In this document: positions 12,920 through 19,748 of the stretch, one piece after another
Position numbering within the stretch: the stretch's first letter is position 1
Layout: the number at the start of each line of letters is the position of its first letter
Assembly (NCBI GenBank): GCA_023705945.1
Contig: BPTM01000196.1
Location: 1-19,751, forward strand
DNA: 19,751 nucleotides
Direction of reading: 5' to 3'
Source: Candidatus Heimdallarchaeota archaeon
GTDB taxonomy: Archaea > Asgardarchaeota > Heimdallarchaeia > Heimdallarchaeales > Heimdallarchaeaceae
The notes under the pieces: model-generated
Database searches by the model: none
What the model saw: only the letters and a program-made list of their open reading frames with translations
Told to the model about the DNA's origin: nothing
Translations under genes and position numbers: made by a program

Positions 12920-13270
12920 CTAATCATTAATTCGTATGGACAATATACCACGTTTATCTTTTTGAACCATTACAGCTTCATTAGGAGCTACGATAGTAAA
13001 AACCTTGTTTTTTGAACCTCTTCCAAACAGTTTGGAAAGTTTGAAATCGTCTCCACCATCAAACGAGAAGAGCTTTAGACCTACAAATTCATTGAAGTCA
13101 ATTTTCCCCATTGTTTTACTGATGAGATTCATTTCTTCTGCAGGTGTCAAACCATTTTCTAGTACGAGGATGGTATTTCTCATAACTTTTGAAAGAATGT
13201 AACGAATCTTTTCATCATCAGTGAGATCATTAGTTTCCGCATATGGAACAAAATCTACTCTATACTTCAT
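12920..13270 (-). CDS. DUF2073 (COG3365-like) archaeal protein of unknown function
   Basis: The central segment of this 116-aa protein, ILVLENGLTPAEEMNLISKTMGKIDFNEFVGLKL, matches my recollection of the DUF2073 core (ilvlE.gLtPeEE..LI..TM..I). It starts 2 nt after the GTPase stop, and its AAGGTGAG SD lies inside the GTPase 3' end. Confidence 0.6.
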   Translation of the reverse strand: MKYRVDFVPYAETNDLTDDEKIRYILSKVMRNTILVLENGLTPAEEMNLISKTMGKIDFNEFVGLKLFSFDGGDDFKLSKLFGRGSKNKVFTIVAPNEAVMVQKDKRGILSIRIND

Positions 13271-13272
13271 GT

Positions 13273-13890
13273 CTATCGCCTCACCTTTTTAGCTAACTCA
13301 GCTATTTTATCATAAAGCTCATCGATTCCATCGCCTTGAATTGCTGAAACTGGTACAACAGGATACTGACTAAAAGCATCTCTGACAAGTCTTACATCAG
13401 CTTCCACCAAGTCAATTTTGTTTGGTACTAAAATGAATGGTTTTTTCTGATGCTCTAGATTTCCTATAATTGTGAAATTAACTTGATCAAAAGGTGATTT
13501 AGATGCATCAATTATAACAAGTGCTACATCAACTTGTTCAAGATACTTTATCGCTTCAATAATTCCTCTAGTTGCTTCTTTTGCTCTTTGCATCGCATCA
13601 CTTGCTGATAAACCATGTTTCATAAATTCCTTTGGATTAACAGAAGTAGCAATTCCTGGCATGTCTATTAAAGTTAAATCTAATTTAGTACCGTTAGCAG
13701 AGAAATTCACTTTTTCTAACTTTTGAATCTCTCTAGTTTCATGAGGAATCTCACTCACTATACCCACTTCTTGTTCTGCCCAATCCAGACCAATTTTATT
13801 AGCGAGAGTTGTTTTTCCCGCGTTTACTTCTCCGTAGAACCCTAAATTAACGGATTTTGGCTTTGACTTCAGCCACGATCTCCATGACAA
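13273..13890 (-). CDS. P-loop GTPase (partner of DUF2073, subfamily uncertain)
   Basis: G1 is GEVNAGKTT. A switch-I Thr lies in PHETREI. G3 is LIDMPGI, G4 is VPNKIDL and G5 is VSAIQG. The start is TTG (13888-13890) with AAGGTGA 5 nt upstream. Confidence 0.85.
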   Translation of the reverse strand: MSWRSWLKSKPKSVNLGFYGEVNAGKTTLANKIGLDWAEQEVGIVSEIPHETREIQKLEKVNFSANGTKLDLTLIDMPGIATSVNPKEFMKHGLSASDAMQRAKEATRGIIEAIKYLEQVDVALVIIDASKSPFDQVNFTIIGNLEHQKKPFILVPNKIDLVEADVRLVRDAFSQYPVVPVSAIQGDGIDELYDKIAELAKKVRR

Positions 13891-16357: not shown

Positions 16358-17140
16358 CTACCCTTCTAATTGTTGTATTAATTGAGCAATAAAATTTGGA
16401 TATTTGATGAGTGGTCTTGCTACAGATACAGCAATAGCTCCTACTTTTAGCATCTTTTTAACATCTTCTATACATCTTACAGAATTATTGCCAATAACTG
16501 GAATATCGGTAGAGCGACAAAAGAATTCTAATAATTGAATATTTGCAACATTTTTTCCTTTCAACATAGAATCAATATGAATATAGTTAACTTGTTGTTT
16601 CTCTAAACTTTTAATCAAGGCATCCTTATCTCCAACAGAACACCCTCGAATTTTTATGCCTAATTTTGTTTTTTGTAAAGAATTTGAGATACCTGTTAGT
16701 AACTGATTTAATTTCTTTAGGTCCTTAAGCAGACTTTCCCCTCCTCCTAGTGATAGGACTTCTTTTTGTCTACAATGAACATTTAATTCTAGAAAATCTA
16801 TTTTTCCATCTAAAGATTTTAACCATTTTTCAGTAATTTGATCAATGGTTACAATTCGTAGATTAACAGCTGTTTTTTGATTCTTCTTCCTCTTGTTTAG
16901 TAAAAGATTTTGATTAAGCCACTCGGACAACTCATTCGCATTTACCGACGGAATGAATTCCATTCTCCCCCTCTCTTCCATCTTCAAAGATGCATTACAA
17001 TTTAATTTGTCAGCTGGAAATCCACCCAAGGTGACCATACCTGCTCCTAAATCAAGCATCTTTTGACAAAAATCTCTGTTTGCAACACCAGCTATAGCAG
17101 ATTGAGCAATAAGTGGTTTAATTTTAAACATATTTGTCAT
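16358..17140 (-). CDS. Dus/NifR3-related FMN-binding TIM-barrel oxidoreductase (short archaeal form), function unassigned
   Basis: The Dus-like motif order is kept. IAQSAIAGVANRDFCQKM corresponds to laPMaGvTd..FR. IDFLELNVHCRQKEVLSLGGGESLL corresponds to iDiNmGCP..kv...g.GsaLl. LGIKIRG corresponds to vKiR.G. IPVIGNNSVRCIEDVKKML...AVSVARPLIKYPNF corresponds to iPVi.NGdI....a......gvMiGRgal.nP. A GGAGAG SD lies 7 nt upstream of ATG 17140. The gene overlaps the cofD 3' end by 17 nt. Confidence 0.65.
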   Translation of the reverse strand: MTNMFKIKPLIAQSAIAGVANRDFCQKMLDLGAGMVTLGGFPADKLNCNASLKMEERGRMEFIPSVNANELSEWLNQNLLLNKRKKNQKTAVNLRIVTIDQITEKWLKSLDGKIDFLELNVHCRQKEVLSLGGGESLLKDLKKLNQLLTGISNSLQKTKLGIKIRGCSVGDKDALIKSLEKQQVNYIHIDSMLKGKNVANIQLLEFFCRSTDIPVIGNNSVRCIEDVKKMLKVGAIAVSVARPLIKYPNFIAQLIQQLEG

Positions 17141-18071
17141 AAAGTTCTCTCCGATTCAATATAGAACAAGCTAACCTAGAAGCATCTTGAGTGTCTTTGA
17201 ACAAAATTTCTTCTGAAAAAACTTCTAATCCAGTTTTATTTTGTATCTGGTTACTCATATCTGAATCTGTTTTGTCAATTATTAAACATGAACAATAATC
17301 TTTATAGATTTTTGCAATTCCCATTGGTGTAGATTCCAATCCTTCGGCTTTCATGAGCATTTCAGTGGGACCACTAACGGGTTTATTACCAATAAGGGGA
17401 CTTATGGCAATGGTCTTATCCTTATGTTTTCTCAATAATTCTGCAATCTCTCTAACTCGGATTATTGGACCTATACTTGTCACTGGATTACTTGGACCAA
17501 TTATAATTAACTCAGATTTTTCAATTGTACTTCTAACTGCTTCTGGGATTTCAGCACTTTCTAGATTTTTTATGTAAACTTGTTTAATGTTTACTTTTGC
17601 TTTGTATTTAACCCAGAATTCTTGAAAATGAATGTCACCTTTCTTTTCTGTGATAATACGACTCTCTATATGATTGTTTGTGCAAGGAATAATTGTTGAT
17701 TCAATATTTAGAAGGTTTGAAAGAGCTTTTACAATATCCTCTTGAGAGCGCCCTTTTTGAATCATCAGAGTTCTAAAAAGATTAACAGCTAGGTCTTGAT
17801 CACCCAAATTGAACCATGTTGGAAAGCCAAGCAAGTGCAACATCTTCAAAGTGTTGAAAGTGTCGTTTTTTATCCCCCAAAATTTATTTTCATCTAACAA
17901 ACCACTGAACAAGTAGAGTATCGTATCCACATCAGGTGAGATATAAATTCCCGAGAGCCATATATCATCTGCAGTATTAACTATCACAGATAGACTTTCA
18001 TCACTTAAAATAGTTCTAAAACCTTGAATTAACTTTGGGGTTCCTGTTCCTCCTGAAAGGAATGTTATCAT
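17124..18071 (-). CDS. cofD: 2-phospho-L-lactate (LPPG):FO transferase
   Basis: There is a near-canonical CofD N-terminus, MITFLSGGTGTPKLIQGF...SVIVNTADD...YISPDVDTILY. Also present are IIIGPSNPVTSIGPI and ISPLIGNKPVSGPTEMLM. This matches methanogen CofD as I remember it along its full length. Confidence 0.9.
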   Translation of the reverse strand: MITFLSGGTGTPKLIQGFRTILSDESLSVIVNTADDIWLSGIYISPDVDTILYLFSGLLDENKFWGIKNDTFNTLKMLHLLGFPTWFNLGDQDLAVNLFRTLMIQKGRSQEDIVKALSNLLNIESTIIPCTNNHIESRIITEKKGDIHFQEFWVKYKAKVNIKQVYIKNLESAEIPEAVRSTIEKSELIIIGPSNPVTSIGPIIRVREIAELLRKHKDKTIAISPLIGNKPVSGPTEMLMKAEGLESTPMGIAKIYKDYCSCLIIDKTDSDMSNQIQNKTGLEVFSEEILFKDTQDASRLACSILNRRELYDKYV

Positions 18072-18085
18072 AATAAACCCCTAAA

Positions 18086-18946
18086 TTATTTCTTTTTAGC
18101 TGTGGATTTCTTTGCCGCTGGTTTTGCTTTAGTTTTTTTATTTACTTTTTTAGTTGCTTTCTTCTTTTCAGTTGTCTTCTTTTCAGCTGGCTTTGCTTTA
18201 GTCTTTGTTTCAGTTTTAACTGTTGTCTTCTTTTCAGCTGGCTTTGCTTTAGTCTTTGTTTCAGTTTTTGTTTCAGTTTTAGAAGTTGTTTTTTCAGTTA
18301 CTTTTTTAGTTGCTTTCTTCTTCACTGCAGTTTTCTTTTTCTTTGAATCTACTTCTGTAAGACGAAACCGTGAAGTTGATTTTATGACAACTCTATAGTA
18401 AGCTCCTTGTTCTCCTAGTATAGGATTTCTAACAATTCTAAGAACATCACCTGGTTTTGCTTGAATCGCTTTTACGGCAGGATCTGTCTCTAGAATTTTT
18501 GGAATTTGATGTTTTGAGATTTGATATTTTATTAAAAATGATCGGATTTCCTTACTGGTTAATTTAATATGATGAGGGACTACTTCATGATCAAAAATAT
18601 TGAACAATGGGTTTGAACTACTGATAATCTCTATTCCGAGTTTTACAGATTCTTTCTTTGCATAATGAGTCAACGGTGCTTCTGCAATTAGTAATGCTTC
18701 ATCTAATTCCTCTTCAGCCTGAAGTTTACCAAGAATTCTAATTGTTTTTACTCCGACTTGAGGATTTTTTGGAAATCTTGCTAATGCTGTTTTTTTCGTA
18801 TCATCTTCTCCAATCTTTTCCGCATATACGTCCATAAATTCGTCGTCTTCTTTTATCTTAGTTATTTCAAATCCTCTAAATTCGAGTATTTCTTTAACTC
18901 CACTTGCGATTCTTTGCTCTTTTGCTAGTTGTTCCTTAGTTGCCAA
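18086..18946 (-). CDS. rpoH: RNA polymerase subunit H/Rpb5, long form: Rpb5_N-like domain, RpoH/Rpb5_C domain and a lysine-rich repeat tail
   Basis: The C-domain reads FDHEVVPHHIKLTSKEIRSFLIKYQISKHQIPKILETDPAVKAIQAKPGDVLRIVR...GAYYRVV. The N-terminal ~110 aa carries VKEILEFRGFEIT and FPKNPQVGVKTIRI. The last ~84 aa are K/T/A/P/E only. The start is TTG (18944-18946) with a GAGGT SD. Confidence 0.85.
   Translation of the reverse strand: MATKEQLAKEQRIASGVKEILEFRGFEITKIKEDDEFMDVYAEKIGEDDTKKTALARFPKNPQVGVKTIRILGKLQAEEELDEALLIAEAPLTHYAKKESVKLGIEIISSSNPLFNIFDHEVVPHHIKLTSKEIRSFLIKYQISKHQIPKILETDPAVKAIQAKPGDVLRIVRNPILGEQGAYYRVVIKSTSRFRLTEVDSKKKKTAVKKKATKKVTEKTTSKTETKTETKTKAKPAEKKTTVKTETKTKAKPAEKKTTEKKKATKKVNKKTKAKPAAKKSTAKKK
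18143..18322. repeat. Nested direct repeats inside the rpoH tail-coding region
   Basis: A perfect 47-nt direct repeat occurs at 18171-18217 and 18222-18268, with a 51-nt period equal to a 17-aa unit (KTETKTKAKPAEKKTT[V/E]). It is flanked by a perfect 24-nt repeat, TACTTTTTTAGTTGCTTTCTTCTT, at 18143-18166 and 18299-18322. An 11-mer, GTTTCAGTTTT, recurs at 18207, 18258 and 18270. Confidence 0.9.
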
Positions 18947-18980
18947 GAAGGATACCTCTTCCTTCCTTTAATTAATGACA

Positions 18981-18988
18981 TTTAAAAT
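18981..18988 (-). promoter_or_regulatory. TATA-like element (ATTTTAAA on the minus strand, preceded by a purine-rich CAAAAA BRE-like tract) for the rpoH-cofD-dus-cofC-peptidase operon
   Basis: It lies about 39 nt upstream of the TTG start. That would place a TSS near 18960 and leave a short leader containing the GAGGT SD. This is the only A/T box in the 70-nt spacer. Confidence 0.35.
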
Positions 18989-19016
18989 TTTTTGAAGAGT
19001 GAGAGGTTTTTGTTTT

Positions 19017-19373
19017 TTAGTTTTGTTCCTCTTTTGTAGTGAATTTGATGAAATAGGAACCATCCTTATCCCTACTTATAATAGTTTTTTCTTTCCCTGA
19101 TTCTGTTAGAAGTTTCTCTATATCAACCTCAAAAACCCCTTCACTAGTTAGCCGAATTGATTCCAATCCTTCTTGAATATCTGTATTTTCTACTTCTCTT
19201 TCAACTATTATATCTAATTCCTTCTCATCTTGAAATTTTATACTTCCTTCTTTGAAAGTTTTGAACTTGAAAGATCCACAGTTTGGACACCCATTGAGAA
19301 GTATATCGTTTGAAAGGGTAATATCTTTCTCGCAAATTGCACAAATAGTCTTTCTCTTTGATGATTCTGACAT
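19017..19373 (-). CDS. Zn-ribbon protein, DUF2072/COG3364-like
   Basis: The N-terminal ribbon is CAICEKDITLSNDILLNGCPNCGSFKF. The C-terminal segment is LESIRLTSEGVFEVDIEKLL...GSYFIKF. Both fit my recollection of the archaeal DUF2072 family, which is usually found beside the GTPase/DUF2073 pair. Confidence 0.5.
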   Translation of the reverse strand: MSESSKRKTICAICEKDITLSNDILLNGCPNCGSFKFKTFKEGSIKFQDEKELDIIVEREVENTDIQEGLESIRLTSEGVFEVDIEKLLTESGKEKTIISRDKDGSYFIKFTTKEEQN

Positions 19374-19427: not shown

Positions 19428-19748
19428 TTATTCTAGCATGATACTTGATGTGTACCGGAAATTCTCCGCATAACCGCATTCCGGACATCCTTTCTCTTTC
19501 AGTTCTTCTATTGAGTTATATTCCCCACCTTGACCCACAGAATGTATTTTGCCACATTTGCATTCGTAAGGCTGAGGGATTTGTGTACTCTCTCTAAAAT
19601 ACATAGGACCAAAATAATGATTTGGTATAGTTTCATTTGAGTTTTCATTTACATTTAAAACATATAAATCAGAAGTTCTAGTTCCAAGCGGTGTATCAAA
19701 TTCATATTCATTAAATGATTTCTTAACACTTTCAATTGTTAAACTCAT
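19428..19748 (-). CDS. Small zinc-ribbon protein of unknown family
   Basis: This 106-aa protein has putative Zn ligands in YECKCGKIH ... GCPECGY (CxC-x25-CxxC). ATG 19748 lies 3 nt from the window edge, so a longer N-terminus cannot be excluded. Confidence 0.45.
   Translation of the reverse strand: MSLTIESVKKSFNEYEFDTPLGTRTSDLYVLNVNENSNETIPNHYFGPMYFRESTQIPQPYECKCGKIHSVGQGGEYNSIEELKEKGCPECGYAENFRYTSSIMLE

Follow-up and report, generated by a model that had tools for sequence, protein, structure and literature searches.

The minus-strand open reading frame (ORF) at positions 18086-18946 of contig BPTM01000196.1 from a Candidatus Heimdallarchaeota archaeon (19,751 nucleotides analysed, hereafter the window) probably encodes the Rpo5/RpoH subunit of the heimdallarchaeial RNA polymerase, in a long form with the architecture of eukaryotic Rpb5. 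The ORF list of the window gives 286 codons and a stop behind a TTG start, and the completeness of the coding sequence is backed by 51 close homologues (56-100% identity), all of them from Heimdallarchaeota or Heimdallarchaeaceae metagenome-assembled genomes (MAGs); the identical protein is present on two more NCBI MAG contigs. The original prediction, made from the letters and their translations, had described a 286-residue protein of three parts in an archaeal context. All the parts are present, namely an N-terminal module (residues 1-110, 18617-18946, minus strand) in which a Mrr-like PD-(D/E)XK fold has been inactivated and which is a homologue of the jaw module of eukaryotic Rpb5, an Rpb5_C/RpoH globe (residues 115-187, 18386-18604, minus strand) and a polycationic tail, and the context is that of Heimdallarchaeia, an Asgard group. 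The idea that this archaeal RpoH bears an N-terminal module homologous to that of eukaryotic Rpb5 is essentially supported by our data. The subunit is known and its long archaeal variant appears to be new: the eukaryote-type, two-module Rpb5 is common in Asgard archaea and Bathyarchaeia, whereas the N-terminal module has been stated to be restricted to eukaryotes or absent from archaea (PMC1802627, PMC6690254, PMC3906176) and a survey of PD-(D/E)XK proteins lists PF03871 as Eukaryota only. No report of a long archaeal Rpo5 was found in the full-text literature, including recent Asgard studies of eukaryotic signature proteins and a 2026 survey of small subunits, in a search that left aside supplementary tables, subscription-only papers and domain databases.

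The C-terminal globe matches Rpb5_C (PF01191) with 76.2 bits against a cut-off of 23.5 (E 1.6e-21), over residues 115-187 and the full length of the Pfam model (1-73), close to the limits of about 113-190 proposed earlier, and it reaches 82.8 bits with the NCBIfam RpoH equivalog NF007129, for which the cut-off is 83. Its identity to canonical operon-encoded RpoH proteins is 42-55% (48% to one short RpoH of this kind), to be compared with 53% between two bona fide RpoH orthologues, and homologues carry the RpoH name in the NCBI and IMG annotations. In yeast Rpb5, lethal or conditional mutants have been obtained at R26 in the N-terminal helix, where R26E is lethal, and at the Rpb1-contacting residues H147, P151, D182, R200 and R212 (PMC1802627). 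The BLASTP alignment with the yeast protein (the yeast sequence used is 100% identical to 1dzf_A) is collinear from window residues 6-188 to yeast residues 8-215 (E 1e-19); in this alignment R26 corresponds to R24 of the window protein and the five contact residues correspond to H120, P124, D155, R173 and R185 with a constant offset of 27, so that all six mutationally critical residues are conserved. In an alignment of 36 archaeal, eukaryotic and virus-like long forms, R24, H120 and D155 are invariant and the Rpo1-contact residues of the globe are invariant or nearly so. The canonical archaeal RpoH/Rpo5 (75-98 residues; 8cro_H, 4qiw_H and 2waq_H in the PDB, P0211 and P0212 in our set) has the same globe with the same Rpo1-contact residues, but lacks the N-terminal module and heads rpoH-rpoB-rpoA, in contrast to the window gene, which adds both module and tail and lies between an OapC-like and a CofD-family gene.

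Sequence comparisons indicate that the N-terminal module is specifically homologous to the eukaryotic jaw module, beyond the superfamily level. When the whole protein was compared with the PDB by phmmer, residues 47-185 were aligned with residues 65-207 of human RPB5 (E 7e-19), and eukaryotic RPB5 outranked archaeal Rpo5 (E 6.7e-16) because the alignment extends from residue 47 on through the N-terminal module into the globe. The phmmer and BLASTP alignments coincide with the places at which the first 110 or so residues had been aligned by eye to Rpb5_N in the original prediction. A profile derived from this stretch (residues 1-110) in 15 homologues matched eukaryotic RPB5 chains only in the PDB, with E-values from 6.4e-10 to 6e-4 (Drosophila 9mu7_E 6.4e-10; human 1.2e-8; Arabidopsis 1.8e-7 over query residues 11-97; yeast 6e-4), and no nuclease was found there with an E-value below 0.18. 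In profile-profile comparison with hhalign, the archaeal module matched that of eight eukaryotic sequences at 98.8% (E 7.9e-17, 95 columns) and a true Mrr protein (P0143) at 88.7% (E 2.6e-6), while the control, the eukaryotic module against the same Mrr, gave 68.8% (E 4.5e-5). The archaeal module thus bridges Rpb5 and Mrr but has by far the closer relation to Rpb5. Bathyarchaeial and eukaryotic modules were likewise matched at 95.5% (E 1.5e-8, 50 columns). Searched over 1.84 billion representative proteins, the module profile yielded 172 matches, consisting of archaeal proteins with the module followed by Rpb5_C (176-196 residues), Rpb5 of eukaryotic and of virus-like type and a small number of true Mrr proteins, with eukaryotic Rpb5 at 6.5e-12 and the best true Mrr at 1.2e-4, about seven orders of magnitude apart. 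Single-linkage clustering did not subdivide the modules, nearly all of which fell into one cluster.

The AlphaFold2 model is in agreement with this homology. The N-terminal module is modelled with a predicted local distance difference test (pLDDT) value of 88 and an alpha-beta-beta-beta-alpha-beta-alpha-beta topology, which holds the alpha-beta-beta-beta-alpha-beta core typical of PD-(D/E)XK enzymes. The best PDB matches of the full-length model in Foldseek are full-length RPB5 structures, which occupy the first 36 ranks over both domains (E 1e-13 to 6e-8) and span about 205-215 columns, against just 74 for archaeal short Rpo5. The template-modelling score of the full-length comparison is only about 0.45 because the angle between the domains differs. 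With the module alone, RPB5 also ranks first (root-mean-square deviation of 2.3 Å over 73 columns to 8uhd_E). The Mrr catalytic domain (PF04471) and NA-iREase1 (PF22722) share with the module the fold and the motif pattern ..VGV..IR......A.L...G.(F/Y)T..A, and their Pfam matches on it are borderline to significant; Mrr, however, has a catalytic (E/Q)xK, where the window protein has A-L-A, and the window module is fused to Rpb5_C. Aligned with the true Mrr, the catalytic Q-x-K is replaced by A54-L-A56, so that the module is no nuclease, and the first Asp (D39) alone is retained; the Mrr catalytic residues are missing in the Bathyarchaeial members as well. An active nuclease was rejected as a candidate function, since the catalytic D...(E/Q)xK triad is not kept. 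Among the relatives, three proteins of 349-481 residues (P0078, P0086, P0136) contain two or more Mrr-like modules, followed by Rpb5_C in P0078 and P0136 and with no Rpb5_C match in P0086, and six others (P0071, P0081, P0095, P0097, P0134, P0145) have the N-terminal module without a detectable Rpb5_C.

Compared with known two-module proteins, the window protein has the same modules in the same order as eukaryotic Rpb5 (RPABC1/POLR2E; PF03871 and PF01191), which is common to Pol I, II and III, whose N-terminal module is likewise a PD-(D/E)XK-like fold without catalytic residues and whose gene is likewise unlinked to the large-subunit genes. The two are about 25% identical; they differ by a eukaryotic insertion of 15-20 residues between the first two strands, which the archaeal long forms lack, and by the 86-residue polycationic tail of the window protein, which is found in no eukaryotic Rpb5 compared. 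The Rpb5 homologues of Nucleocytoviricota (African swine fever virus D205R, 8q3b_E) are also two-module proteins, of about 190-205 residues, and were recovered by the N-terminal profile; unlike the window protein they are viral and tail-less and group with the eukaryotes.

The long form is specific neither to the source genome nor to Asgard archaea and is abundant in Bathyarchaeia. A scan of one genome per GTDB species returned 422 relatives, of which the best 80 all match from about residue 18 to residue 187. About 50 of these are from Bathyarchaeia, and the others include Heimdallarchaeota, Borrarchaeum, Sifarchaeum and two complete chromosomes, those of Ca. Heimdallarchaeum aukensis and Ca. 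H. endolithica; these 80 loci also served for the gene-context counts. Hodarchaeales carry the long form too, to judge from cluster names. A profile of 29 sequences gave 726 matches in the protein database, the best 120 of which are Bathyarchaeia-type long forms only (176-239 residues), all pre-annotated with Rpb5_C and Mrr_cat, most also with NA-iREase1, and often named RpoH in IMG. In a neighbour-joining tree the eukaryotic and virus-like sequences are united with 100% bootstrap, apart from the window protein, which falls inside a Heimdall clade. The tree singles out no archaeal group as nearest to the eukaryotes, and the scores of group-specific hidden Markov models against eukaryotic sequences are mixed, the window clade having the highest for the N-terminal module and the lowest for the C-domain. 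Two loci carry taxonomic labels that probably reflect binning or labelling errors in public MAGs: L018, labelled Thorarchaeota, encodes a protein 74% identical to that of the window, and L033, labelled Bathyarchaeia, a tail-less form of the Heimdall type.

Translation of the long protein from its TTG codon (18944-18946, minus strand) is indicated by sequence conservation. The start is preceded, across a 7-nt spacer, by a Shine-Dalgarno-like GAGGT (18954-18958), and both TTG and GAGGT are found with this spacing at the same position in 19 of the 21 species of the clade (loci L009-L029). The first ATG occurs at codon 38, behind 37 residues that are conserved at the protein level, and the ratio of nonsynonymous to synonymous substitution rates (dN/dS) relative to relatives is 0.03-0.2 for the N-terminal module, in the same range as for the globe. 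A further element upstream, CTCACTCTTCAAAAAATTTTAAAT (18980-19003, minus strand), lies in the 70-nt spacer after the upstream gene and includes the TATA-like TTTTAAAT at 18980-18987; its CTCACTTTTCAAAAAATTTTAAAT form is conserved across about 20 species, and the promoter-like element is kept between species with 64-92% protein identity, suggesting that it is the promoter. That so weak a start as TTG is conserved in the gene of a polymerase subunit may be a sign of translational dosing. In the databases, 'short' RpoH entries of relatives are truncated calls of intact long ORFs, examined at loci L089 (2590-3540) and L090 (5537-6112): the region upstream of P0048 (179 residues) is in frame and encodes an intact N-terminal module, and P0332 (91 residues, Bathyarchaeia, RpoH by its NCBI name) is the 3' end of a 191-codon ORF. 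These entries were therefore rejected as natural variants without the module. The N-terminal module is hidden by non-ATG starts and by model-guided trimming to the short RpoH, which is a systematic annotation artefact.

The globe is connected by a conserved basic linker, IKSTSRFRLTEVD (residues 188-200, 18347-18385, minus strand), to the tail (residues 201-286, 18089-18346, minus strand), which consists of 43% K, 23% T, 13% A, 8% E and 3.5% P, with a net charge of +30, and is predicted to be disordered (pLDDT below 50). In the tail-coding DNA, Tandem Repeats Finder detected a perfect 51-bp tandem duplication (18171-18268, minus strand; 1.9 copies, 100% matches), by which the peptide KTETKTKAKPAEKKTT is encoded twice, at residues 227-242 and 244-259. 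Basic tails, of 29-160 residues and with varied repeat units, were found only in the immediate clade of the window protein (at least 64% identity); Ca. Heimdallarchaeum, L024 and P0045-47 have acidic tails, while in other Heimdall lineages, in Borr- and Sifarchaeia and in Bathyarchaeia the protein stops at most a few residues beyond the globe. Since tails are basic, acidic or absent among relatives, with varied repeats, the tail is a young, clade-specific and fast-evolving disordered add-on that grows by repeat expansion; the KS(T/S)SRLRL motif of the linker is kept in the whole clade, with basic and acidic tails alike. The proposed likeness to the C-terminal domain (CTD) of histone H1 holds in part: the tail is lysine-rich and disordered, but it is T-rich and proline-poor (K/T/A), and no linker-histone Pfam match was obtained on the window protein, nor any significant Pfam match on its tail. 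Like the H1 CTD and Chlamydia Hc2 (PF07382, a pre-computed annotation of the tail in two homologues, P0023 and P0031), it is lysine-rich, of low complexity and disordered, whereas linker histone H1 combines a winged-helix globular domain with a K/A/P-rich CTD and the window protein has no such globular domain; the likeness is one of composition only. The plus-strand ORF of 98 residues at 18102-18398, rich in F and V, is an antisense shadow of the lysine-rich tail and no gene.

Several observations weigh against the interpretation as a long Rpo5 with an Rpb5-type jaw module and a DNA-contacting tail. PF03871, the first profile that had been suggested for checking the N-terminal part, stays below threshold on the isolated module (18.4 bits against 27) and has no match on the full protein, although the N-only profile and hhalign do single out eukaryotic RPB5. 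In Foldseek with the module alone, two nucleases, EndoMS and AF1548, are ranked nearly on a par with RPB5. The C-domain of the window clade is more derived, with RNPILGEQGAYYRVV where the other archaeal long forms have R.S.TAG....YR.VV, and it scores 52-59 bits against eukaryotic Rpb5_C, compared with 74-85 bits for these other forms. The acidic tails of the sister genera, and the lack of any tail elsewhere, speak against a conserved DNA-binding role, and in one Bathyarchaeota MAG the Rpo5 accession appears to be two numbers away from that of Rpo1 (PMC13257274), which suggests an operon-linked copy. The results on the module would suit an independent fusion, in archaea, of a Mrr-like nuclease domain to RpoH, with a likeness to Rpb5 at the superfamily level only: on residues 1-110 of the full protein Pfam gives weak matches to NA-iREase1 and Mrr_cat only, both of which outscore PF03871, Mrr_cat matches 15 of the 15 profile members (best E 5.5e-12) as against 11 for PF03871 (best E 5.9e-4), and some relatives bear two or more Mrr-like modules. 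Because the nucleases tie with RPB5 for the isolated module, the fold alone does not discriminate, and at that level the modelled module is a generic PD-(D/E)XK domain. Such convergence is nevertheless improbable, since the profile-profile match to eukaryotic modules is about 10 orders of magnitude better than that to true Mrr and covers the whole module with its N-terminal helix, since eukaryotic Rpb5 so far precedes the first true Mrr among the 1.84 billion representatives, and since the same fusion order, the collinear alignment and the invariant arginine of the first helix point to common descent. Moreover, the PF03871 match stops at about model position 84 of 89, ahead of the best-conserved stretch, VG(V/I)K..I...A.L....(L/M)T..AK. 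An Rpb5 gene acquired recently by horizontal transfer from a eukaryote or a giant virus, or else a contig that is chimeric or a contaminant, could explain why the best PDB sequence matches are eukaryotic, but we consider this very improbable in view of the nesting of the window protein in the Heimdall clade apart from the fully supported eukaryotic and virus-like clade, of the missing eukaryotic insertion and of the wide occurrence of the long form in Bathyarchaeia and Asgard archaea. A chimeric or eukaryotic contig, a danger which the original prediction had itself raised, was rejected on the uniform GC content of the window (31-37%) and its synteny over about 20 species, complete Heimdallarchaeum chromosomes included. 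It had also raised the internal start, by which only a short RpoH would be made and the 110 upstream codons would be untranslated or an annotation artefact. The late first ATG and the short entries of P0048 and P0332 could be cited for it, yet this is the least credible of the alternatives, because the module, its first 37 residues included, is under purifying selection, the TTG and the SD-like motif are conserved and the short entries are truncated calls.

The most serious rival, which we still hold to be unlikely, is that the long protein is an extra Rpb5-like paralogue, a canonical short rpoH being kept ahead of rpoB; it would then act away from the polymerase or serve as an alternative subunit, for instance as a competitor for the Rpo5 site or as a tether between polymerase and chromatin. 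The gene is indeed uncoupled from rpoB and rpoA, as the original prediction had noted for the window, and this is general: neither gene is present in the window, within 10 kb of any of the 80 related loci or at the other loci examined. Two control loci (L007 and L008), obtained through a protein-database search with the 82-residue C-domain that gave 2 candidates, show canonical short RpoH genes at the head of rpoH-rpoB'-rpoB''-rpoA'-rpoA'' operons. The Bathyarchaeota accessions and the somewhat derived C-domain of the window clade are also in agreement with a paralogue. On the other hand, indirect evidence favours a single, relocated rpoH gene: the residues in contact with Rpo1 are all conserved, dN/dS is as low as an essential subunit would be expected to show, and the similarity to canonical RpoH is of the degree seen between true orthologues. 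PF01191 also figures among the marker proteins of archaeal phylogenomics (PMC7554672), which would imply single-copy status; the accession numbering in the 2026 survey (PMC13257274) places Rpo5 of Hel- and Thorarchaeota far from Rpo1, suggesting that these Asgard genes are likewise unlinked; and the 'short' RpoH records of these lineages are the long ORF in truncated form. From the same numbering, Rpo8 and not Rpo5 appears to adjoin Rpo2 and Rpo1 in a Helarchaeota MAG (PMC13257274), so that in Asgard archaea the large-subunit operon may have a remodelled head. At another locus (L004, 15210-18985), the long rpo5 of a tail-less relative lies about 5 kb from a cluster of S13-S4-S11-rpoD-L18e-L13-S9-rpoN, a linkage with ribosomal and further polymerase genes that does not extend to rpoB.

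Returning to the long Rpo5 as the regular subunit of the enzyme, we infer that it is incorporated into the polymerase from a sole gene copy, with its module at the jaw position and its tail perhaps in contact with DNA. The globe would dock on the N and C parts of the largest subunit, Rpo1, as in all archaeal and eukaryotic enzymes, and the module, a Mrr-type restriction-endonuclease fold whose catalytic residues are lost, would take the place of the Pol II 'jaw' as a guard rail for downstream DNA. In eukaryotes, downstream DNA is guided by the N-terminal module, on which transcription factors and regulators also dock. In Sulfolobales, the space between Rpo5 and Rpo1N in which the eukaryotic module sits is filled by Rpo13, which binds double-stranded DNA weakly (PMC3479171). 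The long Rpo5 would occupy this same space, and with its basic tail it could give both features in one polypeptide; the likeness is a functional analogy only, Rpo13 being a separate small helical subunit. By its charge and by this analogy, the 86-residue K/T-rich tail would most likely engage nearby nucleic acid or chromatin through additional, non-specific electrostatic interactions, which is plausible but speculative. The gene itself lies outside the rpoB/rpoA operon, with a conserved promoter-like element of its own and a weak but conserved TTG start.

On balance, we lean towards a history in which the jaw module is no eukaryotic invention: an inactivated Mrr-type domain would have been fused to RpoH in archaea, the fused gene would have left the operon, and the long subunit, which would now be the normal Rpo5 of Heimdallarchaeia, other Asgard archaea and most Bathyarchaeia, would have been inherited by eukaryotes and, through them, by giant viruses. 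If this is true, the origin of the jaw part of the Pol II architecture moves back into archaea, some of which would have a Pol II-like lower jaw, and the feature is an unlisted 'eukaryotic signature' that reaches beyond Asgard archaea. The archaeal module would be the natural intermediate that links the jaw module to Mrr-type nucleases. An archaeal polymerase of distinct structure is thereby predicted, for the purification of which Asgard strains recently brought into culture could be used, and the exchange of basic, acidic and absent tails between close relatives would be a natural experiment on the tuning of a polymerase by disordered tails. An annotation problem is exposed as well, the trimming of long ORFs to the short RpoH model.

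The neighbourhood of the gene is well conserved. The CofD-family gene announced by the original prediction lies 14 nt downstream (17124-18071, minus strand) and is followed by dus-like, cofC and M24 peptidase genes (Pfam labels), whereas an OapC-like zinc-ribbon gene (19017-19373, minus strand; PF09845, with faint or weak matches) lies 70 nt upstream, an adjacency with the long rpo5 that is kept in the whole clade. The order BpsA_C-domain gene, OapC-like, long rpo5, cofD-family, dus-like, cofC, M24 peptidase, OapA, OapB holds across the window clade into the complete Ca. Heimdallarchaeum genomes, and the rpo5-cofD pair is found again in Borrarchaeum. No Rfam or tRNA match was obtained in the window. 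The window end cuts through the gene of a BpsA_C-domain protein (about 283 residues in L002), of which the ORF at 19428-19748 (minus strand) encodes the C-terminal part, and in related loci a conserved 754-residue protein without a Pfam match is encoded just beyond the BpsA_C-domain gene. The Oap, or 'origin-associated', genes adjoin a replication origin in haloarchaea. In the window, the genes for OapA (a GTPase), OapB and the OapC-like protein (12920-13890 and 19017-19373) bracket the locus, and the same synteny is seen in L001, L002, L006, L027 and L028.

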